56,801 nt of DNA from an uncultured Candidatus Saccharibacteria bacterium (GTDB lineage: Bacteria; Patescibacteriota; CAZHWT01): positions 13,638-70,438 of the forward strand of contig CAZKPX010000004.1 in NCBI GenBank assembly GCA_964554805.1, read 5' to 3'. The notes under the pieces are model-generated. The model had not been told where the DNA came from. It saw nothing but the letters and a program-made list of their open reading frames with translations, and did no database searches. Made by a program: the position numbers and the translations under genes. Of the stretch, positions 14,758 through 54,577 are shown in pieces (position 1 is the stretch's first letter; each line of letters starts with the position of its first letter).

Positions 14758-14768
14758 TATAGGAGAGC

Positions 14769-37483: not shown

Positions 37484-38647
37484 TTATGATACAGACCGGG
37501 CTTGGGCAAGACTAACCGTGATAGATGCTAAGACTTGATCTGCATCAAGCTTGACTAGCTGCTTAGCAGCATCCTTTTGCTGCTGAGTAGGTGGGTGCGC
37601 TAGCTGCTGTTCAATTGTATCGAATAATACTCTATCGGACAAAAGACTTTCTTTGACGATTGTGGCTGTCCCCGCCTCCACTAGCGCCTGAGCGTTTTTG
37701 GTCTGCTCATCATGTGTCACCCATGGAATAGGGATGCAGATGGCTGGCAGACCCCAATAGGCCAGCTCTAGGATCGTATTAGCGCCAGCCCGACATACCA
37801 CTAAGCTAGCTGCTTTATAGATATGACCGATTTGGCTGACTGCCAATTGCTGGAGCGGTAAGTAGTCTTGAGCTAATTTGCTTGGCAACCTTTTTTGCAA
37901 TTCTGTCAATCTTTCATAGTCAGCGAACTTTTGATTGGATCCCGTTTGATGAATAACTCTATACACCGTTAATAATTTTTCTAGATCCTGCTCCACTGCT
38001 AGGTTGATAACATGCGAACCAAGGCCACCGCCCGTAACATAAATAAGCGGCTTGGCGGACTTGCGTTGCAGCCAGCCAAGAACCGGATCGGATTTAAGAC
38101 CATCGCTGGTTGGATTGGCTACCTGCTGGTTGAGCGGATTACCTGTCAGTACGACTTTTTTAGCATTAAAATATGTCGCGGATTGAGGAAAAGTTATGGC
38201 AATGACATTGGCCATACGAGAGGCAATCTGATTGGCAAGTCCAACTGCGGCTGTTTGCTCATGAATAACAACCGGTATGCCTTGCATCCAAGCAGCCCAG
38301 ACAACAGGCAAGGAGACATAGCCACCAGTCGATAAAACTACCTGCGGCTTAAAATCCTTGACCACTTTGAATGCTTGAAAAATACCAGGTACGACACCCC
38401 ACAGTCGGGTTACTGTGGTCAACGACAAACCGTCTCTTTTTAGCTTGCCTGCAGAAATCGCAACAAAAGGAATATCAGTTGGCTGAACTAAGGATTGTTC
38501 AACCGATGGTCCGGTTGAGCCCTCCATGGTCAACGTGCCACCAACATACAATAGTTCCATGTCGGATTGTGCTTGCAACACTTTTGCCACTGCTAGGGCC
38601 GGCGAAACATGACCGCCCGATCCTCCGCCAGTAATCAGAATCTTCAT
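37484..38647 (-). CDS. murG: UDP-GlcNAc:lipid I GlcNAc transferase MurG
   Basis: 387 aa. N-terminal ITGGGSGGHVSPALAV, C-terminal CRAGANTILE. Confidence 0.92.
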   Translation of the reverse strand: MKILITGGGSGGHVSPALAVAKVLQAQSDMELLYVGGTLTMEGSTGPSVEQSLVQPTDIPFVAISAGKLKRDGLSLTTVTRLWGVVPGIFQAFKVVKDFKPQVVLSTGGYVSLPVVWAAWMQGIPVVIHEQTAAVGLANQIASRMANVIAITFPQSATYFNAKKVVLTGNPLNQQVANPTSDGLKSDPVLGWLQRKSAKPLIYVTGGGLGSHVINLAVEQDLEKLLTVYRVIHQTGSNQKFADYERLTELQKRLPSKLAQDYLPLQQLAVSQIGHIYKAASLVVCRAGANTILELAYWGLPAICIPIPWVTHDEQTKNAQALVEAGTATIVKESLLSDRVLFDTIEQQLAHPPTQQQKDAAKQLVKLDADQVLASITVSLAQARSVS

Positions 38648-40005
38648 ACCTGTAGTATAGCAGCTTGTTTAAAAACTTGCCCCCGGTGCTTATAATCTGA
38701 AAACATGTCAAAACTTTTTGCTCCTGGTGACAACAGGACTATGCCGGTAGAAGCGTGTTGCTGGAGTATTACTCTTGCTTTTGATACTGCTTTTGCTATA
38801 TCTGCTTGATCATAAACCATGGGGATAGTTATGCCGATAGTTTCGGCAGCTCCATGAATTGAGTCTGAATCTTGCCCCATAACAACAATGGCCTTGAGGT
38901 GTTGACATTGAGATAGATCTTTTAATACCGCAGCCCAATTTGCGTGACGATTCTGGCCACCCAGTAGAAGGACCACCGGCTTATCAAATGCCTGCACGGC
39001 TGCCAGGGTAGATTCGGGCGTGGTGGAAATAGAATCATCTATGTACTCAATTCCGTTAATTGATGCTACTGACTCTAAACGGTGTGGCAGTGGCCGATAT
39101 TGGCTAATAGCTTGGACAATGGTGCTGTCATTAACTTGATTTAAATGGGCTGCCATGGCTGCTGCTGCGATATTTTGTAGATTATGTTTACCGAGCAAGC
39201 TCATTTGCGGCAGAGCGATGCTGACTGATCGGTGTTTATTAGTAATCTCCAATGAATCGGCTGCATAGTGGATTCCTTGCTCTACGGCCTTGCCACTCAT
39301 GGCGAAGCGTTGGGCTGAAGTACTAACAATTTGACGGGTTAAAGAAAAGTCATTGTTGAATATAGCTATGTCGTCGATGGTTTGATGTTGAAATAGTTGA
39401 CTTTTGGCTTGCAAATAATTTGATAGTCGGCCATGCAGCTCTAGATGTTCGGGCACTATCATGAGACCAATCGCCATATGGGGAGAATACATAGCATCCC
39501 ATAATTGATAACTAGATAGTTCTGCGACAACAACATCTTGTGGCCCTACTTGGTCAATAATATCTAGGAATGGCACACCAATGTTGCCGGCCAAGTGCAC
39601 TCTTTTTCCTGACAACTTAAGCATGTCATGTAATAATGAGCTGGTTGTCCCCTTGCCTTTTGTACCAGTAATGCCAATCGTTTGAGCAGCGAATTGCTGG
39701 AGAAATAGATTAGTTTGGCTAACAATTTTTAGGGGGTCGATCCCTTGTAGCGCCGAATGATTTGGATTGAATGAAGGGGTGCGAAAGATTAAGTCAAAAT
39801 GATTTAAATCCAGCTGACCATACTCTCCAACCGTAACTTCAGGGATAGTTTGAGCTTCAACCCGCCTATCAAAAATTGTAATATCTTTAACATAATGTCG
39901 TTGAAGAAACTTAACTGTGGATTTTCCTTCTATACCGCACCCTAGCACAGCCACTTTTGGGAAATCATTTAGCAGAGAGATGTATGATTCGTTGCTTGGT
40001 TTCAC
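38644..40005 (-). CDS. murD: UDP-MurNAc-L-Ala:D-Glu ligase MurD
   Basis: GITGTKGKGTT P-loop and Mur ligase layout. The preferred start is GTG at 40003-40005: AAGGAG lies 5 nt upstream and GTGA overlaps the upstream stop. The ORF track starts at 40023. Confidence 0.88.
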   Translation of the reverse strand: MKPSNESYISLLNDFPKVAVLGCGIEGKSTVKFLQRHYVKDITIFDRRVEAQTIPEVTVGEYGQLDLNHFDLIFRTPSFNPNHSALQGIDPLKIVSQTNLFLQQFAAQTIGITGTKGKGTTSSLLHDMLKLSGKRVHLAGNIGVPFLDIIDQVGPQDVVVAELSSYQLWDAMYSPHMAIGLMIVPEHLELHGRLSNYLQAKSQLFQHQTIDDIAIFNNDFSLTRQIVSTSAQRFAMSGKAVEQGIHYAADSLEITNKHRSVSIALPQMSLLGKHNLQNIAAAAMAAHLNQVNDSTIVQAISQYRPLPHRLESVASINGIEYIDDSISTTPESTLAAVQAFDKPVVLLLGGQNRHANWAAVLKDLSQCQHLKAIVVMGQDSDSIHGAAETIGITIPMVYDQADIAKAVSKARVILQQHASTGIVLLSPGAKSFDMFSDYKHRGQVFKQAAILQV

Positions 40006-41414
40006 GATAGCTCCTTTGACCACTTCTGCTCTAGTAGATTTGTTAATCGTTGTGGCAGCTGATGGCTGTTAGCCACAGACATAGACAGGAGCACGTCGCC
40101 TGGTTGCAATTGCTCTGCTAGTCGATCAAGTGCTTGGTCAACATCCTCAACAACATGAATGTCTGCCGGACTGATTATTTGCCGAGCAATATCTGACGAA
40201 CTAATGTCGGCAGAGATTGACTCTTCGCGAGCCGCTTCAATTGGTAGTAATAAAATATGGTCAGCCGAGCTAAAAGCCGATGCATAATCCTGCAGCAATG
40301 CTTTGACGCGCGAGTAGGTGTGTGGTTGATAGCAAGCCCACATTGAACCATGTCGCCACTGCTGAACAAATCGTTGTTTGGCACCACTGATGGTGGCTTT
40401 GATCTCGCTGGGATGGTGAGCATAATCGTCGATAATCGTAATGTGGTTTACTTGGCCCGTTATGACAAATCGACGATCGGCTCCAGCAAAGGTCTGCAAA
40501 CCTTTGCTAAATGAGCTATCAGAAATCCCCAACAGATTGCAGACAATGTACGCTGCACTGACATTGAGCGTATTATGCTGTCCCGCCAGAGGGCTCTTTA
40601 TGTCGACATGCTGATGTATAGATTGGAGAGTAAAAGTAGTTTGGGGATGGTATTTTTGACTATTAATTTTCCAGTCAGACTCCCCTGTCTGCCCATACCA
40701 AATTATTCGATGGGGCTTCCCGGATAAGAGCTGAGGTAAGTATGGATCATCGGCGCAGGCAATGATTATTTTATCTGAAGGCATAGAGTCAACCAGCTCA
40801 TCAAAAGCCTTAATAACATGATCGAATGTCGGAAATAAGTCAGGATGATCCCATTCAAGAGAGGTCAGAATCAAAATATCAGGATGATAAAACATGAACT
40901 TAGATCGCCGATCAATTTGCGATGAGCTGTATTCATCCCCTTCGATAATTACAACCTGGCTATCTGACAATTTAACACTTCTGCCTAGATTTGCCCCCTT
41001 CATGCCGATAAGGTAATCAGGATTATAGCCCGCTTGATCCAATAGCCAGGCGATCAATGTAGTGGTGGTAGTCTTGCCGTGAGTCCCACTTACGACGATT
41101 CGTTTCTTGCGGGCGGTTAACTCCTCGACCAGCTGCGGAAATGATTTAATTTCTAGATGAAGTCGCTTTGCTTCGAGTAGCTCGATATTGTCGGCAGGTA
41201 TATCATTGGCTAAAACAACCATATCCTGATGTTTCAGATGTGACTTATCATATGTGGTATAAAACTCAATACCTGCCTCAATCAAATCGGTGCTAGCAGG
41301 CGGGTAGGCGTTAATGGCCACTCCCGACACTCGATGCCCCTCTCTAGCTAACTGCAGAGCAAGTCCGCTCATCACTTGGCCACATATGCCGATAAAATAG
41401 TATCCTTTAGTCAT
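40002..41414 (-). CDS. Active Mur ligase of the MurC/Mpl family with Mpl-like signatures
   Basis: 470 aa. IGICGQVMSGLA...NAYPPAS N-domain, SGTHGKTTTT P-loop, EGDEYSSSQIDRRSKF, LEWDHPDLF and DDYAHHP. Confidence 0.85.
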   Translation of the reverse strand: MTKGYYFIGICGQVMSGLALQLAREGHRVSGVAINAYPPASTDLIEAGIEFYTTYDKSHLKHQDMVVLANDIPADNIELLEAKRLHLEIKSFPQLVEELTARKKRIVVSGTHGKTTTTTLIAWLLDQAGYNPDYLIGMKGANLGRSVKLSDSQVVIIEGDEYSSSQIDRRSKFMFYHPDILILTSLEWDHPDLFPTFDHVIKAFDELVDSMPSDKIIIACADDPYLPQLLSGKPHRIIWYGQTGESDWKINSQKYHPQTTFTLQSIHQHVDIKSPLAGQHNTLNVSAAYIVCNLLGISDSSFSKGLQTFAGADRRFVITGQVNHITIIDDYAHHPSEIKATISGAKQRFVQQWRHGSMWACYQPHTYSRVKALLQDYASAFSSADHILLLPIEAAREESISADISSSDIARQIISPADIHVVEDVDQALDRLAEQLQPGDVLLSMSVANSHQLPQRLTNLLEQKWSKELS

Positions 41415-41462: not shown

Positions 41463-42632
41463 CTAGACTTTTTGAATTTTTTGGCGAGATATATTAAGCA
41501 CTATGCCGAGGGCGACTAACAAAACGACAAGCGATGTGCCGCCGCTAGAGATGAAGGGCAATGGCACGCCGGTTAGTGGGATAATGCTGACCGCTGCCAA
41601 TAAATTGATAAGGCTTTGGATGGCAATGAGCGACATGACACCGACAATAATCAACCGGCCTTGTTCGTCTGGCGCTTGATGAGAAAGTTTGAAGCCTTGC
41701 CATATCAGGTAGCCGATGATCAGAATCACGATCACTGCTCCTAAATAGCCGAGCTCTTCCCCAATAATAGCAAAGATGGAGTCAGATTCAACCACTGGTA
41801 ACCATTCATACTTTTGCTTGCTTTGCCCCAAGCCCAAGCCGGTCCAACCGCCACTGCCGAGGGCTATGAGCAACTGATTGACCTGGTAGTCAGCATTTTG
41901 GGCGTCGCCAGCTCCACCCCTAAGGAAGGTGGCGATGCGCTGCAAGCGGTAGGGCTGAGTAATAATCAAGATCAATCCAGCCAAACCAGCAACCGGCAAC
42001 AATATCAGGAAATGGCTGAGGCTTGCACCAGCCAAGAAGTACATAATGCCGGCTACAGCCATAATAATAGCGGCTGTGCCCAAATCTCCTTGAGGAACGG
42101 CCACTATAGCGGCAATCAAACCTACCAAAACCATATAGGGCACAAAACCCTTCTTGACTGACTTTAAATCGATTTTCTCGCTGGTTAACCACTTCGCCAA
42201 ATAGATAATCAAAGCAATGATCAGTGGATATGACGGTTGAAATGCCGGCAAGGGACCGATCTTTAGCCAACTGGTGGCACCGCCCAAAGTTACACCGAGA
42301 CCAGGAATAAAAACTGCAAATAAGCCAATGATGGTCACAGCTAGGATTAGCGGGGATAGCTTTAGCCATGTGTGGTACTCTACTCTACTGACAATAAACA
42401 TCGCTACTAGGCCCAAAGCCAAACTAATTGCTTGCTGACTCACAAAATGAAAATTATGGCCGTAGCGCGACATGGACACCACCACTGAAGCATCGTAGAC
42501 CATTAATAAGCCGAAGGCGGTGAGGGCCAGGACGGGTGCAAGAATGCGGAGGTCGAGTTTGGAGGAGCTGGTGTCACCAGCGGCTCTTCGACCAGATAGT
42601 ACTTTTCCATGTTTTAAGCGAATTGTAGACAT
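41463..42632 (-). CDS. ftsW: SEDS glycosyltransferase FtsW
   Basis: 389 aa, polytopic. SDSIFAIIGEELG and PLPFISSGGTS motifs, in dcw context. Confidence 0.9.
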   Translation of the reverse strand: MSTIRLKHGKVLSGRRAAGDTSSSKLDLRILAPVLALTAFGLLMVYDASVVVSMSRYGHNFHFVSQQAISLALGLVAMFIVSRVEYHTWLKLSPLILAVTIIGLFAVFIPGLGVTLGGATSWLKIGPLPAFQPSYPLIIALIIYLAKWLTSEKIDLKSVKKGFVPYMVLVGLIAAIVAVPQGDLGTAAIIMAVAGIMYFLAGASLSHFLILLPVAGLAGLILIITQPYRLQRIATFLRGGAGDAQNADYQVNQLLIALGSGGWTGLGLGQSKQKYEWLPVVESDSIFAIIGEELGYLGAVIVILIIGYLIWQGFKLSHQAPDEQGRLIIVGVMSLIAIQSLINLLAAVSIIPLTGVPLPFISSGGTSLVVLLVALGIVLNISRQKIQKV

Positions 42633-42673: not shown

Positions 42674-43684
42674 TTATAGCAAGGCTATCCACAAACCGAG
42701 AAAAGCGCTTAAGATGCCGAATAGCCAGAAGCGCATTGTAACTTTCGTTTCAGTCCATCCTTTGGCCTCAAAATGATGATGCAAAGGGGCTATGAGGAAG
42801 ACTTTTTTGCCACGGAACTTTTTGGAGGCCATTTGAATTGCTGATGAGGCGAGCTCAACCATAAAAACTGCTCCGATAAATGGCAGCGCGAAGACATTTT
42901 GGCTCATTAAAGCAATGACTGCCAAGGCGGCGCCCAGAGCTAGTGCTCCAGTATCGCCCATAATGAATCGGGCAGGGTATATATTGAAGTATAGGAAAGC
43001 CAATACTGAGCCAATAAGGATAGCAATAAATAAAACTACATCAGCCGTTGAAAAGGCTGCGGCTAGATAGAAGAACGCTGCCAAGGCGATTAAAAGTAGG
43101 CCGCCGGACAGGCCATCCAAGCCATCTGTAATGTTAAACGCATTTGACATGGTGGCAATAACAAAGGCGGCGAAGGGGATATACCACCAGCCCAGCACAA
43201 TCTCCGTATCGAAGGGCAGTCTAATACTATCAAAACCCATATAGGTGTAGAGTAAGTACCCAACTACTAGACCAAGCAGCAGTTGGACAATCAACTTACT
43301 TCGAGCTCTCATGCCCCATAAACCTGAAGCCGGCGCCTCAAGGAATTTTCGGAGATCGTCATAGAAGCCCAGTGCCCCAAAGGTAATGAGAGTTATGGCC
43401 AGAATGCCGATTGTCCAGTTAACTTTGAAACTCGTGAATTGGTAAACGGCAAAACCTAGCGCAAGTACAGTAAAGATAATCAATACTCCACCCGCAGACG
43501 GCGTGCCAATTTTCGACTCATGGAGCTGGTCTATTAGATCTACTTGCTTGACTTGTCCTTTAATATATTCCCGCTGTCTCTGGAATTTTAATTTGTACAG
43601 AAGGTTGATAAAAGGCACAGCCAAGGCGGCGGCGATACCGGTTGATAGAAGAAGGGTGAGGAAGACTTTAGACATATAGGCCAA
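42674..43684 (-). CDS. mraY: Phospho-MurNAc-pentapeptide translocase MraY
   Basis: 336 aa. NAFNITDGLDGL and APLHHHFE motifs. Confidence 0.95.
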   Translation of the reverse strand: MAYMSKVFLTLLLSTGIAAALAVPFINLLYKLKFQRQREYIKGQVKQVDLIDQLHESKIGTPSAGGVLIIFTVLALGFAVYQFTSFKVNWTIGILAITLITFGALGFYDDLRKFLEAPASGLWGMRARSKLIVQLLLGLVVGYLLYTYMGFDSIRLPFDTEIVLGWWYIPFAAFVIATMSNAFNITDGLDGLSGGLLLIALAAFFYLAAAFSTADVVLFIAILIGSVLAFLYFNIYPARFIMGDTGALALGAALAVIALMSQNVFALPFIGAVFMVELASSAIQMASKKFRGKKVFLIAPLHHHFEAKGWTETKVTMRFWLFGILSAFLGLWIALL

Positions 43685-43709: not shown

Positions 43710-44708
43710 TTAGTGTTTGGGAGGATCAGGCTTACGATAGGCTTCGAGAGCAAGGGTGGCAGCGGCTTGAGCTGGGCTCATAGTCGGCTTGATGATTCGG
43801 GTTTGAGGGTTGATTCTTCTTAGTTCGGCTTCGAATCGTCGATAGAGGTATCGACTATTGAGAATGGTGCTGCCAATAATAACTAGTGAGACTTTGGCGT
43901 CTCGCCAATCCAGCTTGGTCATGACAGCATCTACCATTTTCAATAGTTCGTTGACTGAGTGATTGAGTATGTGTTGAGCAACATGATCACCATCTTCGGC
44001 TACATCTGAGGCTAAGATAGCCAAGCTGGCTATCGAGGCTTTATCGGTATATTTCCGATAAATTACCTGATACATCTCATTCAGGGTATCTACCTGGAGG
44101 TGCTTAAAAACTGCTTTGGTTAATTTGGTGGCATCTGATCGCCCATCGAGATCTGAAGTAACAGCTCGCAGAATGCGCAATCCTATATCATAGCCGCTCC
44201 CCTGATCCGACATAATATAATCCAGTCCGCCCGCTTGGACTATTTGCCCACTTTCGGAGCGTGCCAGACAATTAGATCCTGTTCCGGATAGTAAAATGAT
44301 GCCGACGCTATCCTCTACTCCGGCCCTCAAGGCGATCAAGCTGTCATTAACTACTGTCAGTTGGCCGATCATGGAGCTAAGAGAGCTGAGCTTGATGGCT
44401 TTTTCAAGGACTTGGTGATCATGATCAAAATTGTTTCCGGCTAGACCGAAGACTGCTTGATCAAATACCAAGGGCGGGGGAACTTTCAGCTCTGCTATGG
44501 CTTCTTGAACTGCCATTTCCAAATTGGCAATGACTGCCTCTAGACCAATCGTATGATAATTAGCGCCGACAGGAAATGTTTGTTGATAGATGGATTGCCC
44601 TTGCTGGTCAACGATGGCTACGGTAGTATTGCTGGCTCCGCCATCTATGCCAATAAATAGTTGTTCGTGGATTAGTCTTGATTTATTAGTCATATGTATT
44701 CCCATCAT
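43710..44708 (-). CDS. BadF/BadG/BcrA/BcrD-type ATPase, N-acetylglucosamine-kinase-like sugar kinase
   Basis: 332 aa. IGIDGGASNT, SGTGSN and GGLDYIMSDQGSGYDIG motifs are intact. Alternative ATG at 44693. Confidence 0.75.
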   Translation of the reverse strand: MMGIHMTNKSRLIHEQLFIGIDGGASNTTVAIVDQQGQSIYQQTFPVGANYHTIGLEAVIANLEMAVQEAIAELKVPPPLVFDQAVFGLAGNNFDHDHQVLEKAIKLSSLSSMIGQLTVVNDSLIALRAGVEDSVGIILLSGTGSNCLARSESGQIVQAGGLDYIMSDQGSGYDIGLRILRAVTSDLDGRSDATKLTKAVFKHLQVDTLNEMYQVIYRKYTDKASIASLAILASDVAEDGDHVAQHILNHSVNELLKMVDAVMTKLDWRDAKVSLVIIGSTILNSRYLYRRFEAELRRINPQTRIIKPTMSPAQAAATLALEAYRKPDPPKH

Positions 44709-44713
44709 GTAAT

Positions 44714-45967
44714 CTAGTCATGTCTGTCTATTTTTGCCCCCAATTTAATCAATCGATCTGCTAGCGATTCAAATCGCCCATCAATGGCGGCCATGTTGTG
44801 GAGCGTGCTTTGCTCATTGGCTGCTAACGATAGCAACAATCCAACAATACCGCCTGCAAAATCATTGACTGTATACTCAGCCGATTTAATCTTAGTTGGA
44901 CCAAATAAATGAAGGTCTTGATCTACTAAATAGCCGTCAACCAAAAACGCTTTAAGGCACGATAAAGCCTGCGCCAATTCATCTTCATGGTCGGAGCTAA
45001 AAATGCACTCACCCTGACTGAGACTAGATAGCGGTGTGAATAAAAGTAGCCAATCTTCGCTTAAGCCTGGGAAGGGCTTGGCAACTAATTGAATCGGCTG
45101 CCATTCCTGGTCGTGGGTATCTCGCCAGAAACGAATACTGCGACTATCAACTGTATATCGACCAGTCATCTGCTGGATTTTGGCTAAGAACGGCATGATA
45201 AGGGCCGATTTTACCCCTTCTATTTGAACATCACCGGCAGTCATATAGGCAGCAGTGGCCAAAAAAGCTGCCTCATAGCGATCTGGGACGATGGCGTGGG
45301 TGGTACCGGCCATTTCTGATTGCCCTTGAATTTGAAGTCTTGATTCATCTACTCGGTCGATAACGCCATTCATATGCCTTAAACACTGCATCACATCTTC
45401 GACTTCTGGGTTAATGACTGCGCCATCAATCAAGGTTGTGCCATCCGCGGTGGCGGCTAGAATGATAGTGGTGAGGGTTTGATCAGAACCCATACTTTGC
45501 AAATCCAGAGATGCGGCATGGAGATGGTTAAGAGATATTACTGTATGAGATTGTTTGGTAATTTGAGCGCCAAATTGTTCCAAAATTGGCCATAAATAGT
45601 TAAAATCCGACTGGAGAGGCGGCGGAATATCAATCGTGAGCTGTCGACACCGTACCAGGATGGCGGCCAGGAGGCTAGGCGGCCAGCCGACGACATCCCG
45701 AGCATCAACAATGGCGCTCGGCGATGCAACTTGGGCTGCATGGACAGTTATTTCATGACTATGCGTCCAATCTATGGCTATGCCAAATCCCCGCAACTCA
45801 TTCATTAGTGTATCTAAATCTTTCAGGTGAGGAACATTTGTAATAGTGACCTTGTCGGTAGTGAGCAAGGAGGCTGCCAGCACTCCGACGGCTGCTAGTG
45901 GCGAGCCTTTTACAGAAATAATGCCGCGGAGCGCAGAGCCACCTTTGACTTTATAGGTGATACTCAT
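44714..45967 (-). CDS. MurA/EPSP-synthase-fold protein, divergent, predicted catalytically inactive
   Basis: 417 aa. The N-terminus YKVKGGSALRGIISVKGSPLAAVGVLAASLL...ITNVPHLKDLDTLMNELRGFG parallels MurA. C-terminus IDGRFESLADRLIKLGAKI. Catalytic positions are substituted (see findings). Confidence 0.7.
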   Translation of the reverse strand: MSITYKVKGGSALRGIISVKGSPLAAVGVLAASLLTTDKVTITNVPHLKDLDTLMNELRGFGIAIDWTHSHEITVHAAQVASPSAIVDARDVVGWPPSLLAAILVRCRQLTIDIPPPLQSDFNYLWPILEQFGAQITKQSHTVISLNHLHAASLDLQSMGSDQTLTTIILAATADGTTLIDGAVINPEVEDVMQCLRHMNGVIDRVDESRLQIQGQSEMAGTTHAIVPDRYEAAFLATAAYMTAGDVQIEGVKSALIMPFLAKIQQMTGRYTVDSRSIRFWRDTHDQEWQPIQLVAKPFPGLSEDWLLLFTPLSSLSQGECIFSSDHEDELAQALSCLKAFLVDGYLVDQDLHLFGPTKIKSAEYTVNDFAGGIVGLLLSLAANEQSTLHNMAAIDGRFESLADRLIKLGAKIDRHD

Positions 45968-47352
45968 GGCTTCGCCGACCTTTTCTGAGCCTGAATCGCA
46001 GCTTGAATGTCGCCTACTATTGGGAGACGATTTTTTGCATGAATGTAATAGATAAGATCGTTAGGCGAGACATGCTTGGCAATAAAACGGGGCAGTTCGT
46101 CGACGGGTATAGAGTAATGTATGGGTTGAGGTGGTGATGCGACTGAAGATGACCGAGATGTGTCCGGTGTATCGATTCGAATTATAATATCTGTCTCATT
46201 TAAGGCCTTTTTAATAACCGATGGGGACAGGTGGCTATACTCATCTTGGCTGATTAACAGCCACAGCCTGGCATCTGTTTTTGGAAGCAAAAATTGTTGC
46301 CTAACTCGATTAATATGTAACTCTAGGTCGCTAGACCACGGCAGGATAGATTCAATAATGTGGATGTCTTGGACCGTGGCTTGCAATGTATCCCAGGTAA
46401 GAAGGCCATTGCTGTTGCCGATTTCGGTTAGAGCTTGCGACATATCCACTTCCAGAGCATGCGCGCAGGCTAGCGTAGCCATAACTGCCGCTACCCCCTG
46501 CTGGCCAATAAATTGACTGGTTAATAATTCCAATGGTTTGGCCTGGAAGTCTGCGCCAAAGGTACTGTTTTGGGTTGTATATTTAATCTTGGTAGCTCGC
46601 CAATCAGCGGCTGAGGTTTGGCCATAGGTGCTGTATTTGAGATTAACCTGTTTGACCAGACGGAGAGATTGTTTATCTTGATCATGGAGAATGACCTGCA
46701 CTGTCGAGGCTGACTGACTATCTGCCATGTGTTTTAGGAGATGCAGCAGGTCCTTGTAATATGTCGATGATAGCTTGCGCGATGGCTCGTGAGCCAGGAT
46801 CACTATGCTCGGACTGAGATATAGCCACTCAGCGGCAGCATCTAGGCAAGAAGCTGGTTGCCAATCGGTGTCGATGACAAGTGTTTTTTTGGCAGCATAA
46901 TGCACCGCAGAGGGGTGCGACCAATGGTTGGTTGTAGCTAGGACTTGATGCGAAATAATATCAGCCGAGTTTTTGGTAGATTGGAGACTGCTGGCTACCA
47001 ATGCTGCTGTGAGAGGCGAGCCTATGACGACAACCTGCTGCTGCTTGGCTGCTAACTGTTGAATGAGCTGAGCGACCGAAACTACCTCCAGTTTCAACTT
47101 CTGAGCTGTCCGTAATTCGGGATTTTGTTTGGCTATCTGAGGACCAACTACAATCAAGCTATCAGGGTTAATATGCTGAGACTGGTATCGACTGTAGCTA
47201 TGGATGCCTGCTTGGTTGAGCTGCTCGTCAAGTGGTGGGGGTAGCTGGTCAGCTGAGCCAGAGACGGCAAAACCGAGCTGCTTGGTCGCCACAGCTAAGC
47301 CTGCCATGATGGGTTGATCAAGGCCAAGAAAATAGAGATGCTGTTTGATCAT
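45964..47352 (-). CDS. Mpl/MurC-like Mur ligase paralogue lacking the P-loop and other catalytic motifs
   Basis: 462 aa. N-domain YFLGLDQPIMAGLAVATKQLGFAVSGSADQLPPPL parallels the adjacent active ligase. The P-loop position reads VVVIGSPLTAAL. ATGA overlap with the downstream MurA-like gene. Confidence 0.7.
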   Translation of the reverse strand: MIKQHLYFLGLDQPIMAGLAVATKQLGFAVSGSADQLPPPLDEQLNQAGIHSYSRYQSQHINPDSLIVVGPQIAKQNPELRTAQKLKLEVVSVAQLIQQLAAKQQQVVVIGSPLTAALVASSLQSTKNSADIISHQVLATTNHWSHPSAVHYAAKKTLVIDTDWQPASCLDAAAEWLYLSPSIVILAHEPSRKLSSTYYKDLLHLLKHMADSQSASTVQVILHDQDKQSLRLVKQVNLKYSTYGQTSAADWRATKIKYTTQNSTFGADFQAKPLELLTSQFIGQQGVAAVMATLACAHALEVDMSQALTEIGNSNGLLTWDTLQATVQDIHIIESILPWSSDLELHINRVRQQFLLPKTDARLWLLISQDEYSHLSPSVIKKALNETDIIIRIDTPDTSRSSSVASPPQPIHYSIPVDELPRFIAKHVSPNDLIYYIHAKNRLPIVGDIQAAIQAQKRSAKP

Positions 47353-47358
47353 ATGATC

Positions 47359-47367
47359 AGTATAGCA
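47359..47367 (-). promoter_or_regulatory. Extended -10 element (TGCTATACT) placing a predicted TSS on the ATG of the ligase paralogue (leaderless candidate)
   Basis: Minus strand reads GCTTGCTATACTGATCATATG. There are 6 nt between the -10 hexamer and the ATG at 47350-47352, and no SD is possible. Confidence 0.4.
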
Positions 47368-47472
47368 AGCTTGGGAGCCCGCTGTCTTCTGTCTTAGGTT
47401 TGACCTCTACTCGACTGCTGCATTGAGACTGGGAGGTTTGAGGCTGGAGCTGGAGTGATTAATGTTTAGTTC

Positions 47473-47788
47473 ACCGTCATTGCCACTCCGCCAGCTGGCG
47501 GAGTGGCAATCTAGCTATGACTGATATATTTTTCTCAAGTTACATTCGGCCAAAAGCCATTGTTTTTGTATGTCATTTTTTCACCTCAAATAAACATTTT
47601 TTACTAACCTTTGTGTCTATGGGTAGTATTGAATTTGCTTAGGGGCTCTCCCCGTCAAGCTAGGAGACCAGTATTTGAGGTGAAAGAAATGAATACAAGG
47701 GTTTTTATTTAAATGCAGAAGACAGTTGCAGCTACTTTGTATTTTTAACTTTAATCTTTGCCTTTTGACTTTTGATTTTTGCCTTTCC
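47473..47788 (+). repeat. Composite intergenic repeat unit, copy A (module M1, spacer, module M2)
   Basis: M1 (47473-47597) starts with a 32-nt perfect palindrome (47479-47510), followed by GGCAATCTAGCT...TTCGGCCAAAAGCCATTGTTTTTGTATGTCATTTTTTCAC.TCAAATAAACAT. M2 (47646-47788) runs CTCTCCCCGTCA.GCTAGGAGACCAGTATTTGA... and ends in the TTTGCC low-complexity tail. Matches 52862-53173 by eye along its full length. Confidence 0.85.
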
Positions 47789-47908
47789 AATACCTCATCA
47801 AGTTGACTAGATTGCCGCTCCGCTTGTTGGGGATGGCAATCTAGCTGTGTCTGATACTTTTTCTCAAGTTGCATTCGGCCAAAAGCCATTGTTTTTGTAT
47901 GTCATTTG
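47789..47908 (+). repeat. Second, partial M1 module (degenerate palindrome plus conserved 3' part)
   Basis: ATTGCCGCTCCGCTTGTTGGGGATGGCAATCTAGCTGTGTCTGATACTTTTTCTCAAGTTGCATTCGGCCAAAAGCCATTGTTTTTGTATGTCATTTG. Confidence 0.8.
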
Positions 47909-48016
47909 TTTCTTGCCACACTGGTGCAGCCAGCTCGGCTGGCGGATATTGAGACAGGAGACGCGAGACGGAAGACACGGGACAAAGCATGCCACATATC
48001 AACAGCTATGAATGCG

Positions 48017-49801
48017 CTACGGAGCCTGCTGCTGGGCGATGCCGTAGTGCTGGAAAATGTCCTTAGCCATGTCCATCCACATCGGTACAACTGTTTCTGC
48101 AGAGTTGTCGATGCGGGGTTTGTCGAGTTTGGCTAACATAATAAATCTTGGATTAACGGCTGGGGCAAACCCAACAAAGGTTGTAATAGTATTGTCCTGA
48201 TCATAACCGCCTTCGACAGCAATCTGAGAGGTGCTCGTTTTGCCAGCAATATCATAGCCTTGAAGAGCGAGGCGTCGAAATTCACCATTTTTGACGACCT
48301 GCTTGAGCATTTCTACAACTGTTTTAGTTGTTTGAGTGCTGTAAACCTGACTGATCTGCTCTGGCTGGACCGTGGTGATTTGGTCTCCTTGCTGCACGGA
48401 CTCGATGATAGTTGGTTTCATCTGCTTGCCTTGATTGGCGATGGTGGCCATCATTTGGAGAAGCTGTATGGGAGTTACTGAAATCCCCTGACCAAATGAG
48501 GCTGTAGCCAGCGTAACCGGCAACCAGTCTTTGGCAGGAGGGATATATCCTTGTGTTTCACCCTGAAGAGTGATGCCAGTCACTCGGTCAAACCCAACCC
48601 TATGGATGGCTTCTAGGAATTTGTCTCGACCTATTTTGAGGGCAAATTGAGCAGCGCCAGTATTATCCGAGGTTTCAAGCATGTGTGTGACGGTGCTATT
48701 GGGGCCTGAATATTTCTTATTAGCGGTTGTAATGGTGTGATCGCCAACTTTGTATGGGGCGCTCAGGTAGGTAGAATTAGGATTAAAGATGTTGCTATCT
48801 ATGCCGGTGGCTACGGTAAACGACTTTATGACACTGCCAGGCTCATAGGTATCAGAAATAATACTATTTTTAAACAATTTGGCATCATCTACTGCTGCAA
48901 TGTTAGACGGATCAAAGGTTGGATAGTTGGCCATTGCTAGTATCTTGCCAGTCTGAGGTTCCATCAAGATGAACGAGCCAGCCTCGGCAGAATTCTTTTC
49001 TACACCTGACTTGAGTTTTGCTTCCAGCAGATATTGTAATCCCCGATTGATGGTAAGCGTAATAGTTTTGCCATTGACAGCTGGGGTAGACGCGTAATTG
49101 CCGACTGGAATTGGATTGCCCTGTGGATCGCGGTCATAGACCGTTTTGCCGTCGCGTCCTCTTAGGTCATGATCAAAATACCCCTCAATTCCATAATATC
49201 CTTGATCCTGCCCTTGATCATTTTGACTGACAAAGCCCAAGATCTGGCTAGCTAATGAGCCTTCAGGATAGTAGCGCTTTTGTTCTGATTGAAAATCTAT
49301 GCCCTTTAACTGCTTGGCCTTTATTTGTTCAATTTTGACTGGATCAATTTTGCGGGCAATGGCCACCCATTTACGATCTTTTTGTTCAAGCTGTTGTTTT
49401 ATTGTGGCGACAGTGTATTTGGCAGGAGTCGGTATGGGGGTTGGAGAGTTGGGAGTCGTACTTGCGGCATCGGTTTGGCTCGAGTCGGCATTTAGAATGT
49501 CAGCGAGATCTGTGGCTGTTTGCTGGCTGTTTTCAATACGTTGAGGTTCAGCGTAAATAAGATAGGCAGGTTGAGTGCTGGCTAGCTCGAAGCCATCGGC
49601 CGATTTGATAGTGCCTCTGATAGCAGGGATTTCTCGACTGATACCATACTGCTGCTCGGCTTTGGCTAAGAACTGAGGGTGCATTACTACCTGGATATAG
49701 GCAAGTCGGACTAGCAAGGCCAAGCCTATGGCAGCAAATACGCCTAAGATAACAGCATAGCGGGTTTTGTTTGGATTATTGTTTGCTCTTGCCCTGGCCA
49801 T
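48017..49801 (-). CDS. ftsI: Class B penicillin-binding protein / transpeptidase FtsI
   Basis: 594 aa. N-terminal TM, SVIK (SxxK), SDN (SxN), and a third motif reading KTS instead of KTG. Confidence 0.9.
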   Translation of the reverse strand: MARARANNNPNKTRYAVILGVFAAIGLALLVRLAYIQVVMHPQFLAKAEQQYGISREIPAIRGTIKSADGFELASTQPAYLIYAEPQRIENSQQTATDLADILNADSSQTDAASTTPNSPTPIPTPAKYTVATIKQQLEQKDRKWVAIARKIDPVKIEQIKAKQLKGIDFQSEQKRYYPEGSLASQILGFVSQNDQGQDQGYYGIEGYFDHDLRGRDGKTVYDRDPQGNPIPVGNYASTPAVNGKTITLTINRGLQYLLEAKLKSGVEKNSAEAGSFILMEPQTGKILAMANYPTFDPSNIAAVDDAKLFKNSIISDTYEPGSVIKSFTVATGIDSNIFNPNSTYLSAPYKVGDHTITTANKKYSGPNSTVTHMLETSDNTGAAQFALKIGRDKFLEAIHRVGFDRVTGITLQGETQGYIPPAKDWLPVTLATASFGQGISVTPIQLLQMMATIANQGKQMKPTIIESVQQGDQITTVQPEQISQVYSTQTTKTVVEMLKQVVKNGEFRRLALQGYDIAGKTSTSQIAVEGGYDQDNTITTFVGFAPAVNPRFIMLAKLDKPRIDNSAETVVPMWMDMAKDIFQHYGIAQQQAP

Positions 49802-50133
49802 TATTTTTCGACCTCTGGGCTTGGAAGATACATCAGATTTTTGTGAAGCGGCTCCATTTTTAGCTCCTGAGTCGCCTGCTGATTAATGTATTGTAGCGAC
49901 TTATACCGAGAAACTTCCTTGGTTAATTGACTTACTTGGTCGGCTAATTGGGATTGTTGGGATAACAAGGCATTGGACTGGCTCCCGATAGCGACTTGAG
50001 TGTTAGTCAAAATTGTTTCGGCGATTAACAAAATTGCCACACCCATAGCCAAGCAAATATTCACTAGGCCTAGCTTGGAGGCTTGATTAGTCATCTTGGT
50101 AGAGCTTGAGCGGACTTGTCTTCCAATCGCCAT
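49801..50133 (-). CDS. ftsL: FtsL/DivIC-like small bitopic division protein
   Basis: 110 aa with one TM and then a coiled-coil-like segment. Sits between rsmH and ftsI with 1-nt overlaps on both sides. Confidence 0.65.
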   Translation of the reverse strand: MAIGRQVRSSSTKMTNQASKLGLVNICLAMGVAILLIAETILTNTQVAIGSQSNALLSQQSQLADQVSQLTKEVSRYKSLQYINQQATQELKMEPLHKNLMYLPSPEVEK

Positions 50134-51086
50134 TATGAAATACCTTTTTTGATTGCAAATCGAAGCTTAGCTGAGCGTGATCGTGGGTTGCGGTCGACTT
50201 CTGGCTGGCTGGCCATAATTGGCTTTTTGGTGACAACTTCTAGTTGGGAATGCTGCAGCATAAAATGCTTGACGATTCGATCTTCCAGAGAGTGAAAACT
50301 CATGACTGCCAAGACACCTTGATCGGCCAAGATTTCAGTAGCGGCCGGCAGGGCTTGCGATAAACTATCAAGTTCAGCATTAACTGCGAGACGTATAGCC
50401 TGAAAAACTCTGGTAGCGGGATGAATGGGGCCGCGCTTGTAGACCACTGGGCTTGCCTGATAAATAATCTGAGCCAGCTGTTTGGCAGAGGTTATTGGCT
50501 TGACTTGACGCTGCGAGTCAATGGCTTGAGCAAATCGGCGAGCATAACGTTCTTCGCCTAAGTTAGAAAAAATGTTTATCAAATCAGGAACTGACAGCTT
50601 GGCAATCAACTCTTCGGCCGTGACTCCGAACTGACCGTTCATTCTCATATCCAAGTTGTCAGAAGAAAAACTAAATCCACGCTCTAGGTCATCTAGTTGA
50701 TGCGAGGATACCCCCAAATCCATCAGTATGCCCATCACCGGTTGGTCGGTGGCAAGTTGAACTTGTTGTGCAATTTGATCAAAATTTGTGTGAATAAGTT
50801 TTAATTGACCTGACTGGCGATAGCTGTCTAAGCGGTGACCTGCGAAGTCAAGCGCTTGCTGATCCTGATCGATGCCAATAACCCTGGCTCCCAGTTGCAG
50901 CATGGCTTCGGTATGTCCGCCTCCACCAAGAGTAGCGTCAATGTAGGTTAAGCCAGCTTGAACGCGTAGACCTGCCATAATTTCATTTACCATAATAGGA
51001 GTGTGGTAGGTGGAAGCAAAGGGGTGGTGGGAGGTTGACGATTGAAGGTTGGTCGCAGAAGACATATTCCGTTTATTGTACCTCAT
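50133..51086 (-). CDS. rsmH: 16S rRNA (cytosine1402-N4)-methyltransferase RsmH
   Basis: 317 aa. HTPIMVNEI, DATLGGGGH, DLGVSSHQLD and SFHSLEDRIVK motifs. Confidence 0.95.
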   Translation of the reverse strand: MRYNKRNMSSATNLQSSTSHHPFASTYHTPIMVNEIMAGLRVQAGLTYIDATLGGGGHTEAMLQLGARVIGIDQDQQALDFAGHRLDSYRQSGQLKLIHTNFDQIAQQVQLATDQPVMGILMDLGVSSHQLDDLERGFSFSSDNLDMRMNGQFGVTAEELIAKLSVPDLINIFSNLGEERYARRFAQAIDSQRQVKPITSAKQLAQIIYQASPVVYKRGPIHPATRVFQAIRLAVNAELDSLSQALPAATEILADQGVLAVMSFHSLEDRIVKHFMLQHSQLEVVTKKPIMASQPEVDRNPRSRSAKLRFAIKKGIS

Positions 51087-51525
51087 TTTTATTGAATGAT
51101 TGTGTGGCTGCTAGCTTTTGAGCTATGACTGAACCCTGATCGGCTAATTGAGTTTGCATTGATTGCCAACGCTCCAGACTCCACACTTCTAACCATTGAC
51201 CTAGGCCAACAAAGACAACTTCCTGATCAAAGCCTGCATGCTCATATAATGGTGCGGGAATAATGCAGCGGCCTTGGCTATCGAGAGTAACCTGATGCGC
51301 CCCACCCATCAAGAATCGAGCGGATGCTCGGGTGTTTTGATCGAGAAATGAGCCTTGGCTGATTGGTTGAGTTATGTTCAGCCACATTTGCTGGTTAACG
51401 ACAATTAAGCAGCCTTCATAGCCACGGCTAATTATGAGAGAATCGCCCAATATTTGTCTAAATTTTTTTGGTATAGCTAGGCGATGCTTCTGCCCAAGCT
51501 TGTACTGTTCTTCGCCAACAAGCAT
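51073..51525 (-). CDS. mraZ: Transcriptional regulator MraZ
   Basis: 150 aa. Two SpoVT/AbrB-like halves (KHRLAIPKKFR and DSQGRCIIPAPL). First gene of dcw. Confidence 0.93.
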   Translation of the reverse strand: MLVGEEQYKLGQKHRLAIPKKFRQILGDSLIISRGYEGCLIVVNQQMWLNITQPISQGSFLDQNTRASARFLMGGAHQVTLDSQGRCIIPAPLYEHAGFDQEVVFVGLGQWLEVWSLERWQSMQTQLADQGSVIAQKLAATQSFNKNEVQ

Positions 51526-52861: not shown

Positions 52862-53173
52862 CGTCATTGCCATCCCCCAGCTGGCAGAGCGGCAATCTAG
52901 CTGTGGCTGATACTTTTTCTCAAATTGCATTCGGCCAAAAGCCATTGTTTTTGTATGTCATTTTTTCACATCAAATAAACATGACTTACTTGTCTTTGTA
53001 AGTATGGACGAGGATTTTTTTGTTTTATTACTCTCCCCCGTCAGGCTAGGAGACCAGTATTTGATACGAAAGAAATGAATACAGGGTTTTAATTAAATGC
53101 AGAAGACAATTGCGATTACTTTGTATTTTTGCCTTTAATTTTTGCCTTTTGATTTTTGGTTTTTGCCTTTTGA
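52862..53173 (+). repeat. Composite intergenic repeat unit, copy B (M1, spacer, M2)
   Basis: Collinear with 47473-47788 in the same orientation. Ends 7 nt from the glyQS stop. Confidence 0.85.
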
Positions 53174-53179
53174 ATTAAC

Positions 53180-54577
53180 TTAGGAAATCAGACTAGCAGA
53201 AATGAATTGCTGCAGCTCTGCAATCGGAAGGCGGTGTTGTTGTTGGGTGTCGCGATTGCGGATGGTGACGGTGTCATCTTCCATGGTGTCAAAATCAATG
53301 GTGATGCACCACGGGGTTCCGATTTCATCTTGGTATAGATACCGCTTGCCAATGTTACCCCGATCATCCCAGGTGGCAGCAAATTGCTTATGCAATGTTT
53401 GATAAACTTGCTGTGCTTTATCCACTAGCTGAGGCTTATTTTTTAGTAGCGGAAAAACGGCTACTTGATATGGGGCGAGTGACGGCTTGAGTGCGAGAAC
53501 AGTGCGCTGATTATCGTCATCCTGACGGTAAGCATCTGATAAAACCATTAAAAATAGTCTGTTTATCCCTACTGCAGGTTCGATAACATGAGGGACAAGC
53601 TTGGCACCAGTCATAGGATCGGTATATTCAAGTGTCTGGCCAGAGAACTTTTGGTGCTGGTTTAGATCATAGTTTGTGCGGTATGCTACGCCCCACAACT
53701 CTTTCCAGCCGAATGAGAACTTATACTCAAGATCGTAGGTGTCATTGCTATAATGACTGCGCTCTTTGTCGGTATGCTGTCGCCAGCGGAGGTTATCTGC
53801 CTGTACGCCGAGCACTTCGGTTACAAATTCCCACATGGCGGCCTTCCAGTCCTCCATCAAAGCCTGCCAGTCAGTTTCTTCAGGATTAAAGAAATACTCG
53901 ATCTCTGCTTGCTCAAACTCTAGGGTGCGGAATACGAACTGACCAGTGGTTATCTCATTGCGGAAAGACTTGCCGATTTGGCCAATACCAAATGGAAGGC
54001 GTACCCGACTGGAATCGATAACATTTTTAAAGTTGGAAAAAATGCCTTGAGCAGTTTCTCCACGGAGATAGACGGTTGATTTTTCACCAGCTACGGCCCC
54101 AATCGCTGTTTCGAACAGCAAATTAAACGCTTTGGGGGCGGTAATAGGATTGCCTTGCGGAGATGTCACTTGGTGCTGCTGGATAAAATCAGCCATTTGC
54201 TCTAAGGTTAAATCTTCAACTTGAACGCCCTGGGGAAACTTGCTTGGATTGGCTTCAACATAGGCTTCAATAAGATGATCCGCGCGAAAACGATTATTGG
54301 TAACAGCATCTTCTACCAGAGGATCGCTAAATGATCCGACGTGACCGGATGCCACCCAGGTTTGTGGATGTAAAATTATTTGCGAATCGAGACCTACCAT
54401 ATCGGGCCGACGAGTAATAAAAAATTGCCACCACTGATTTTTGATTTCTCTCAGAAGTTCAACCCCCAGCGGTCCGTAATCAAATGAATTAGCGAGGCCG
54501 CCATAAATTTCACTGGTTTGATATACATATCCGCGACGCTTGGCTAGGGAAACAATTTTTTCTAGTGAATCTACCAT
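53180..54577 (-). CDS. glyQS: Glycyl-tRNA synthetase, single-chain dimeric (alpha2) type
   Basis: 465 aa. Class II motifs (FRNEITTGQFVFRTLEFEQAEIEYF, GINRL) and a C-terminal anticodon-binding domain. Confidence 0.93.
   Translation of the reverse strand: MVDSLEKIVSLAKRRGYVYQTSEIYGGLANSFDYGPLGVELLREIKNQWWQFFITRRPDMVGLDSQIILHPQTWVASGHVGSFSDPLVEDAVTNNRFRADHLIEAYVEANPSKFPQGVQVEDLTLEQMADFIQQHQVTSPQGNPITAPKAFNLLFETAIGAVAGEKSTVYLRGETAQGIFSNFKNVIDSSRVRLPFGIGQIGKSFRNEITTGQFVFRTLEFEQAEIEYFFNPEETDWQALMEDWKAAMWEFVTEVLGVQADNLRWRQHTDKERSHYSNDTYDLEYKFSFGWKELWGVAYRTNYDLNQHQKFSGQTLEYTDPMTGAKLVPHVIEPAVGINRLFLMVLSDAYRQDDDNQRTVLALKPSLAPYQVAVFPLLKNKPQLVDKAQQVYQTLHKQFAATWDDRGNIGKRYLYQDEIGTPWCITIDFDTMEDDTVTIRNRDTQQQHRLPIAELQQFISASLIS

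Follow-up and report, generated by a model that had tools for sequence, protein, structure and literature searches.

A MurC-derived protein without ligase motifs beside a MurA homologue without catalytic residues in the dcw cluster of a Candidatus Saccharibacteria bacterium

Introduction

MurC and MurA are essential, occur near-universally and have been studied intensively as targets of antibiotics. Here, we describe a gene which derives from murC and whose product, termed dMurC, has lost the catalytic motifs of the family. The gene is located in the division and cell wall (dcw) cluster of an uncultured Candidatus Saccharibacteria bacterium, on a stretch of 56,801 nucleotides (nt) of contig CAZKPX010000004.1 (assembly GCA_964554805.1, positions 13,638 to 70,438), which is called the window throughout. 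It is followed directly by a gene for a MurA homologue, termed dMurA, in which the catalytic residues are lost as well.

45964..47352, minus strand: dMurC, MurC-derived protein of 462 amino acids (aa), ATG start, all catalytic motifs gone
44714..45967, minus strand: dMurA, MurA homologue of 417 aa, assigned from its murA profile score, residue tables and model

dMurC adds a new, non-catalytic form to a known family of enzymes; this form is rare, lineage-specific and selectively maintained. Searches of the open literature retrieved no description of dedicated conserved non-catalytic MurC or MurA paralogues. We favor, with moderate confidence, the interpretation that dMurC is a catalytically dead MurC descendant which acts non-catalytically together with dMurA, and probably with a neighboring MurK-like kinase, in the cytoplasmic supply of peptidoglycan precursors.

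Mur Ligases and Their Non-Catalytic Relatives

Mur-ligase homologues with a role as subunit are known. MurT acts exclusively as one subunit of the lipid II amidotransferase MurT-GatD, whose two proteins are encoded by adjacent genes; it keeps the ATP-binding P-loop and pairs with the glutaminase GatD. In contrast, dMurC has no P-loop, no MurT model is present among its six NCBIfam matches, its neighbors are the MurA homologue and a sugar kinase, and no GatD-like gene is found among the annotated genes of the cluster. A dead cell-wall enzyme that has been retained as a regulator of the precursor pathway is CwlM, a catalytically inactive amidase which activates MurA in mycobacteria. Here, the likeness to dMurC is a conceptual analogy; CwlM has another fold and is regulated by phosphorylation.

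PAP11 is a plant subunit of the plastid RNA polymerase with MurE fold and with a structural role outside ligase chemistry, although its loss of catalysis is unsettled (PMC11561172). PAP11 (8R6S_Q) is found at rank 46 among the Foldseek matches of the dMurC model. No other precedent shows as clearly the re-use of a Mur ligase as a subunit without catalysis, and in concept PAP11 is the one nearest to dMurC. The two differ in that PAP11 is eukaryotic, derived from MurE and part of a transcription complex, whereas dMurC is bacterial, derived from MurC and encoded in a dcw cluster, and its motifs are demonstrably lost.

The closest enzymes are the ligases themselves. With MurC (TIGR01082; PDB 1GQY, 1P3D, 2F00), dMurC shares about 425 collinear residues, the three-domain fold and the same slot in the dcw cluster of the Candidate Phyla Radiation (CPR), and its nearest relatives are active MurCs of sister lineages. 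On the other hand, it reaches only 74.6 bits against the TIGR01082 cutoff of 335.1, the P-loop Lys is deleted and the motifs of the Mg, ATP and amino-acid sites are lost; therefore, dMurC is predicted not to work like MurC. The UDP-MurNAc:tripeptide ligase Mpl (TIGR01081; PDB 3HN7, 3EAG) belongs to the same fold family, and the CPR MurC clade has an Mpl-like EGDEY...SKF region, the second half of which (AS.LD...LYY.P) is partly kept in dMurC. Nevertheless, dMurC scores 53.9 bits against the Mpl cutoff of 388.7 and shows the same catalytic losses. An earlier sequence-only reading of the window had recognized a Mur-ligase paralogue and named both families for comparison; of the two, MurC is the closer one (74.6 vs. 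53.9 bits), although dMurC stays below the cutoff of either.

Loss of the Ligase Chemistry in dMurC

The open reading frame (ORF) is intact over its 462 codons, as had been described before, and has an ATG start and no internal stop codon. The frame of dMurC contains 0 stops in comparison to 24-35 in each of the other five frames, and composition-matched shuffles carried 21 stops on average, with 0 of 2000 being stop-free. The sequence-only reading had compared the protein to an active ligase of the same cluster, and this homology proved to be real.

40002..41414, minus strand: active murC paralogue, used as comparator (TIGR01082 348.8 bits, above the cutoff; three Pfam Mur-ligase domains)

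BLASTP aligned both proteins with 24% identity over 373 aa (E 5e-24), and a profile-profile alignment of the 6-member dMurC family with 29 active MurCs using hhalign gave a probability of 100% and an E of 1e-53 over 425 collinear columns. In the comparator, the motifs GTHGKTT, EGDEY, DH, HNxxN, RRF and DDYAHHP are intact, which together with its score marks it as a bona fide MurC. In a Pfam scan of dMurC only the N-terminal Mur_ligase domain PF01225 passes (residues 5-104, E 1.1e-9), and Mur_ligase_M and Mur_ligase_C were undetected.

The structure of dMurC was modeled with AlphaFold2 from an 80-sequence alignment (pLDDT 91.2, pTM 0.91). The best PDB matches of this model found by Foldseek are all MurC (1GQY, 4HV4, 2F00, 1P3D), with full-length TM-scores of 0.72-0.76 and a sequence identity of 16-17%. 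dMurC is thereby predicted to have the complete three-domain Mur-ligase fold.

47038..47352, minus strand: N-terminal Rossmann-like domain, residues 1-105, the best-conserved part (PF01225)
46423..47037, minus strand: central, former ATPase domain, residues 106-310, without EGDEY, DH and HNxxN
47005..47031, minus strand: remnant of the P-loop, VVIGS/PLTA, residues 108-116; His-Gly-Lys is lost through a deletion of 3 residues
45967..46422, minus strand: C-terminal domain, residues 311-462, without RR, DDYAHHP, PHxYSR and AARE; the fastest-evolving part, for which the model is still confident

The P-loop had been read as replaced by a stretch without Lys. The Lys is indeed absent, but the change is not a residue-for-residue substitution; instead, three residues are deleted, as seen by the alignment of VVSGTHGKTTTTTLIA in active MurC with VVIGS---PLTAALVA in dMurC. 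The hhalign alignment of the family with the active MurCs places the deletion at the same position, turning GTHGKTT into GS---PLT, and the loss of His-Gly-Lys is common to all six members of the family. Furthermore, a Walker A or GK[ST] motif is absent across the full sequence of each of the six, so that no alternative placement of the P-loop is possible and a functional P-loop elsewhere in the protein, which would have overturned the earlier reading, does not exist.

The remaining motifs are lost as well. The pairings proposed from the sequence were reproduced, namely EGDEYSSS to DTDWQPAS, LEWDHPD to AH-EPSRK and DDYAHHP to ESILPWS. In addition, HNxxN is changed to QGxxA, RRF to LTW and PHTYSR to QDEYSH, and AARE is also replaced. 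The columns of the Mg-binding Glu (EGDEY) and His (DH), which are 99% conserved in 77 active homologues, are occupied in dMurC by W/L and by R/F/Y or a gap. Throughout the six members HNxxN, RR, DDYAHHP and PHxYSR are replaced, and the replacing residues differ from member to member. This variation at the former active sites argues against a re-built active site.

For a comparison on residue level, about 42 columns with at least 85% conservation in the 77 active homologues were used. Of these, dMurC keeps mainly columns with a structural role in the N-domain (G10, M16, A20, G27, V30, G32, L45, N77, E79), whereas every ligand-contacting column is changed. The N-domain had been described as retained, which holds for its fold and for the PF01225 match but not for two residues: the second Gly of the Gly-rich loop (G13 equivalent) and the Asp of SGSD (D34 equivalent), each 95% conserved, are replaced in all members. 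In MurC structures these residues hold the diphosphate and the ribose of UDP. A retained UDP-MurNAc pocket, which the sequence-only reading had considered, is therefore doubtful.

The motif losses support that dMurC can neither bind ATP-Mg nor form an acyl-phosphate and is not an ATP-dependent ligase. This had been the central claim of the earlier reading, and it extends to the whole family, since motifs for the binding of ATP, Mg and substrate are absent in all six members. With clear homology to an enzyme and with the catalytic residues lost, dMurC would count, judged from its sequence, as a pseudoenzyme in the operational sense.

Conservation of the dMurC Family

An exhaustive HMMER search among 1.84 billion cluster representatives revealed P0002 (43%), P0003 (35%) and P0004 (33%) as well as the fragment P0006, all with the same lesions. 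Together with a sixth member in locus L087, the dMurC family amounts to six sequences; five of these are clusters among the representatives searched. Their pairwise identity is 30-62%; the five full-length sequences are all open, and the remaining member is a fragment of 155 aa. The P-loop deletion and all motif losses are common to 6/6 members. A lack of conservation would have counted against the earlier reading; five further orthologues with the same lesions are present. For P0004 in locus L003 the database call (436 aa, start at 2167) is too short: an upstream ATG at 2128 gives 449 aa (2128-3477) and restores the N-terminus MQHLYFIGLHRPSM of the family, with a conserved -10 element preceding it.

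In neighbor-joining (NJ) trees the six members are united in a single long-branched clade (100% bootstrap). The placement of this clade failed: it came out basal, probably due to long-branch attraction, and grouping with the syntenic active MurCs obtained 34-36% support. Since NJ cannot place the clade, its derivation from the syntenic MurC is drawn from synteny and from the ranking of hits. Here, the best match outside the family is the intact MurC P0005 with 152 bits, which is one of the active MurCs encoded upstream of dMurA in sister lineages, and other MurCs reach at most 91 bits.

The family is rare, which limits the generality of these observations. A word-indexed homologue search with the single protein returned only dMurC itself, and pattern scans with the family alignment were without a match, both among the species representatives of GTDB and among JGI metagenome contigs.

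Selection on dMurC

Compared with its ortholog in L087, the closest full locus, dMurC shows a proportion of nonsynonymous differences (pN) of 0.458 and of synonymous differences (pS) of 0.802. The latter is about 0.80 for all genes compared between the window and L087, which means that synonymous sites are saturated and dN/dS is only bounded: to roughly <0.24 for dMurC and to about 0.02 to 0.14 for the neighboring genes. Since pN (0.46) is much smaller than the saturated pS, constraint acts on the amino-acid sequence and not just on the reading frame. The constraint is unevenly distributed. For the N-domain (residues 1-105) the mean pairwise identity is 52% within the dMurC family vs. 50% among three active MurCs; for residues 106-205 the values are 42% vs. 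60%, and for residues 206-310 31% vs. 34%. dMurC thus appears to be kept by purifying selection which acts mainly on the N-terminal domain.

These data bear on the view that dMurC is a relic, a decaying gene which stays open by chance or for the translation of the essential genes dMurA, murK and mraY downstream. It would fit that dMurC evolves faster than any other gene of the cluster, that all function-defining motifs are gone and that the C-domain is poorly conserved. Nevertheless, five full-length sequences with 30 to 62% identity are all open, in addition to a single fragment, a confident full-length fold is predicted, and the small genomes of CPR bacteria usually purge dead genes. Above all, the constraint on amino-acid level and an N-domain as conserved as that of active MurCs argue against a relic, which we regard as very unlikely. 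This agrees with the sequence-only reading, in which dMurC was no obvious pseudogene: besides the intact ORF, five further orthologues occupy the same gene position, pN is below pS, the N-domain is conserved, and a -10 element upstream of the gene is kept.

dMurA and the MurK-Like Kinase

The MurA homologue was not part of the earlier reading, which also did not cover the location of the pair in the ancestral murC-murA slot of CPR bacteria. dMurA is devoid of K22, N23, R91, C115, R120, R331, R371 and R397, and D305 is the only residue of the catalytic set that is kept. Due to K22P and N23L, VKGSPLA is present in place of SGAKNAA, and a different, shorter sequence stands in place of the Cys115 loop PGGCxxGxRPxD. 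The score of 204.7 bits on TIGR01072 (murA) is below the cutoff of 392.7. The structural model (AlphaFold2, pLDDT 93.3) has TM-scores of 0.88-0.92 to MurA structures. Like dMurC, dMurA would fit the operational definition of a pseudoenzyme.

The dMurA family comprises 15 clusters with an E of 1e-94 or better, separated by a gap from true MurAs, which follow at about 1e-53. All of its clusters lack K22, N23, R91, R331, R371 and R397. A scan of JGI metagenomes with the dMurA alignment yielded a single locus, and JGI names two members of the family 'UDP-N-acetylglucosamine 1-carboxyvinyltransferase'. Whether dMurC goes along with a dMurA that has lost its D115/R120-like loop was considered as well; such a link is seen in the main clade and fails for P0166 and P0167, in which the loop is eroded and an active MurC is located upstream, and it was not used as evidence.

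In the three full loci (window, L003, L087) dMurC is followed by dMurA without exception, and in the window the ATG of dMurA overlaps the stop of dMurC by 4 nt (ATGA). In L004 and L005 an N-terminal fragment of dMurA, recognizable by VKGSPLA, follows dMurC. The third gene of this arrangement encodes a sugar kinase.

43710..44708, minus strand: MurK-like N-acetylmuramic acid (MurNAc)/N-acetylglucosamine (GlcNAc) kinase, BadF/BcrAD family (PF01869, E 2.6e-32)

The best solved relative of the kinase is the MurNAc/GlcNAc kinase MurK (PDB 8ZO3, E 1.1e-38); the two proteins align with few gaps, including at the stretches DGGxS, ND and GTGS. The kinase gene follows dMurA in every locus extending that far. 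CPR relatives often carry a murF-like ligase at this position of the dcw cluster. As judged from homology, a MurK-like kinase in a dcw cluster hints at amino-sugar salvage. Tannerella forsythia is a MurNAc auxotroph without MurNAc biosynthesis and possesses MurK (PMC5790795, PMC10465942), and the MurK-like neighbor and the dead MurA of the window recall this organism, at least by analogy.

This neighborhood raises the question whether dMurC is a neofunctionalized enzyme or binder, which performs ATP-independent chemistry or binds muropeptides or amino sugars in a salvage module with MurK. The constant presence of the kinase would agree with this, as would near-invariant residues of the dMurA family which are absent from MurA (ADWTHxHExT at 65-74, W95, W281, W306, R398) and suggest that at least the partner gained a new conserved site. 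Within dMurC itself, however, the former active-site positions are variable among members, the invariant polar residues of the family (Q95, Q98, Q99, Q104, D131, H204) form no recognizable catalytic motif, and the N-domain no longer has its nucleotide-binding Gly and Asp. A new chemistry or ligand of dMurC is thus considered unlikely.

The Ancestral murC-murA Slot

The whole dcw cluster of the window is located on the minus strand. In addition to the genes listed above it contains the following features:

51073-51525, minus strand: mraZ
50133-51086, minus strand: mraW
49801-50133, minus strand: ftsL-like ORF, assigned from position and size only
48017-49801, minus strand: ftsI
47353-48016: spacer of 664 nt between ftsI and dMurC
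42674-43684, minus strand: mraY
41463-42632, minus strand: ftsW
38644-40023, minus strand: murD
37484-38647, minus strand: murG

Beyond murG follow ftsQ, ftsA, an ORF of unknown function and ftsZ. Among the scanned ORFs of the window with at least 100 aa no murE, murF, murB or ddl was found.

In a scan of GTDB with MraY the nearest relative (74% identity) belongs to a metagenome-assembled genome (MAG) of Candidatus Saccharibacteria, and the next ones, at about 55%, to Patescibacteria, WWE3 and Woesebacteria, which shows that the host is a member of the Patescibacteria (CPR). In 48 other CPR dcw loci with a MurA homologue, K22, N23, R91, C/D115, R120, D305, R371 and R397 are kept throughout (48/48), and R331 is kept in 46/48. 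A MurC-type ligase is located directly before MurA, with mraY within two genes after it, in 38 of these 48 loci; therefore, dMurC and dMurA occupy the ancestral murC-murA slot. Many loci titled 'uncultured Gammaproteobacteria' or 'Pseudomonadales', and one titled 'Nanoarchaeia' (L008, L011, L019, L025 and others), carry typical Patescibacteria dcw clusters with a MraY identity of 42-56% to the window, and the titles of these MAG records look taxonomically mislabeled.

In sister lineages (L006, L086, L090, L094, P0167) an intact three-domain MurC is encoded upstream of dMurA in the same slot, and the dead MurC is confined to the sub-lineage of the window, L003 and L087 together with P0002, P0003 and P0006. 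The gene orders are as follows:

Window, L003 and L087: ftsI, dMurC, dMurA, murK, mraY
L006 and L091-93: pgeF-like, murC, dMurA, murK, mraY
L090: ftsI, murE, pgeF, murC, murB, dMurA

The dcw cluster is rearranged in the lineage of the window. Here, murC-murD (38644-41414) is located between ftsW and murG, whereas murG follows ftsW directly in L087 (13338-15731) and L089 (3560-5959). Furthermore, murE/murF are located beside ftsI or mraY in L090 and in most CPR relatives, and none is present in the cluster of the window.

The active MurC paralogue of the window could also be the partner of dMurC, in the way dead paralogues of some eukaryotic enzymes act as prozymes. dMurC would then pair with the active enzyme and tune its activity or stability, and dMurA would be incidental. 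The origin of the dead copy from MurC and the active MurC in the same cluster are in line with this, as is the distribution of conservation, which is highest in the N-domain and, within the central domain, in its first half; furthermore, MurC of E. coli and H. influenzae can dimerize. The gene order points elsewhere, since dMurC always adjoins dMurA and not murC, and the 21-kb cluster of L087 contains no active murC. A prozyme is accordingly given little credence.

The Region Upstream of dMurC

Upstream of the gene a promoter-like site is present.

47359..47388, minus strand: promoter-like site (AAGACA, 18 nt, TG-n-TATACT), its end 6 nt upstream of the dMurC start codon ATG

An extended -10 element TGnTAnnnT is found 6-8 nt upstream of the ATG in 5/5 dMurC orthologues with known upstream sequence, which suggests a conserved promoter that would give a leaderless dMurC mRNA. 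Within the window, 5 of 50 genes (37484-38647, 17228-18538, 19998-20816, 45964-47352, 54756-55874) have this element with its end 5-9 nt ahead of their start codon, in comparison to 0.5% of random positions, and a Shine-Dalgarno-like sequence is present at only 8 of the 50 genes. Leaderless transcripts may be used widely in this organism.

The spacer between ftsI and dMurC is much longer in the window (664 nt) than in L003 and L087 (about 19-38 nt). It contains two direct copies of an element of about 80 nt (47504-47581 and 47834-47910), and a third copy with 1 mismatch in 45 nt is located at 52919-52963, between recO and a gene for a class II aminoacyl-tRNA synthetase (53180-54577). The copy at 47479-47510 includes a perfect palindrome of 16+16 nt. 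The element looks like a small dispersed repeat or a MITE-like insertion. Two Logan contigs stop inside this spacer, 156 nt upstream of the ATG of dMurC.

Other Genes of the Window

Between ftsA and ftsZ, at 33726-35066 on the minus strand, an ORF of 446 aa without Pfam or NCBIfam match is present. ORFs of similar size without a Pfam match on record are found at this position in L087 (450 aa) and L089 (441 aa), and the 446-aa ORF may encode an unknown, lineage-specific protein of the division cluster. At 13483-16079, also on the minus strand, two tandem Wzy_C (O-antigen ligase-like) membrane proteins are encoded beside a GT4 glycosyltransferase and a Wzx-like flippase; this region is a surface-polysaccharide locus near the dcw cluster. 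A role of dMurC in a defense system was rejected, as PADLOC gave no match.

Proposed Role of dMurC

For our favored interpretation, a dead MurC acting together with dMurA and probably MurK, a stepwise history is the most economical one. At first, the dcw-resident MurA homologue of a CPR clade would have lost the residues for enolpyruvyl transfer, and a MurK-type kinase would have become its fixed neighbor. Later, the upstream MurC of one sub-lineage would have lost all ligase chemistry; in the genome of the window an intact MurC paralogue (40002..41414) is present in the same cluster. The dead copy is presumably still transcribed from its own conserved promoter, and both dead genes would since have been kept open, equipped with promoters and under purifying selection. 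dMurC could then act as a binding, scaffolding or regulatory subunit of precursor supply at the division site.

Several observations weigh against this interpretation. Only six dMurC sequences are known. dMurC is the fastest-evolving gene of the cluster, with 36% identity to L087 in comparison to 91% for FtsA, 88% for FtsZ, 78% for MraY, 67% for FtsI, 57% for the kinase and 52% for the MurA homologue. Constraint is weak outside the N-domain, as the identity of the C-domain is 24% in the family vs. 45% in active MurCs. Due to the loss of the Gly-loop Gly and of the SGSD Asp, there is no obvious ligand for a role as sensor. The ATGA overlap with dMurA is not conserved, with a gap of 5 nt in L087 and of 34 nt in L003. 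Since no active murC is found in the 21 kb of L087, a MurC partner is not always nearby. Furthermore, the alignment used for the dMurC model consists mostly of active MurCs, so that the confidence of the model may be inflated.

A more far-reaching version of this interpretation is tentative and, taken as a whole, rather doubtful. Here, dMurC, dMurA and MurK would form a dedicated three-gene module of a rare CPR lineage, in which two former enzymes of UDP-MurNAc-peptide synthesis now serve as non-catalytic sensing, scaffolding or regulatory subunits. The module would have accompanied a shift from the de novo synthesis of muramic acid to the salvage of host-derived MurNAc, GlcNAc or muropeptides. 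If true, it would preserve, like a fossil, the way in which the first committed steps of cell-wall synthesis were rewired in an episymbiont, and it would contain the first pair of pseudoenzymes inside a dcw cluster.

Conclusion

The relevance of these observations is mainly for specialists of the cell wall and of CPR bacteria, and the rarity of the family limits their reach. If metabolic reconstructions of such genomes rely on enzyme names from automatic annotation, their capacity for biosynthesis would be overstated. The MurK-like kinase, which follows without exception, points to a salvage of amino sugars by CPR episymbionts. A dead MurC under selection beside a dead MurA in the ancestral slot suggests that both folds can be put to structural or regulatory use in the supply of peptidoglycan precursors.

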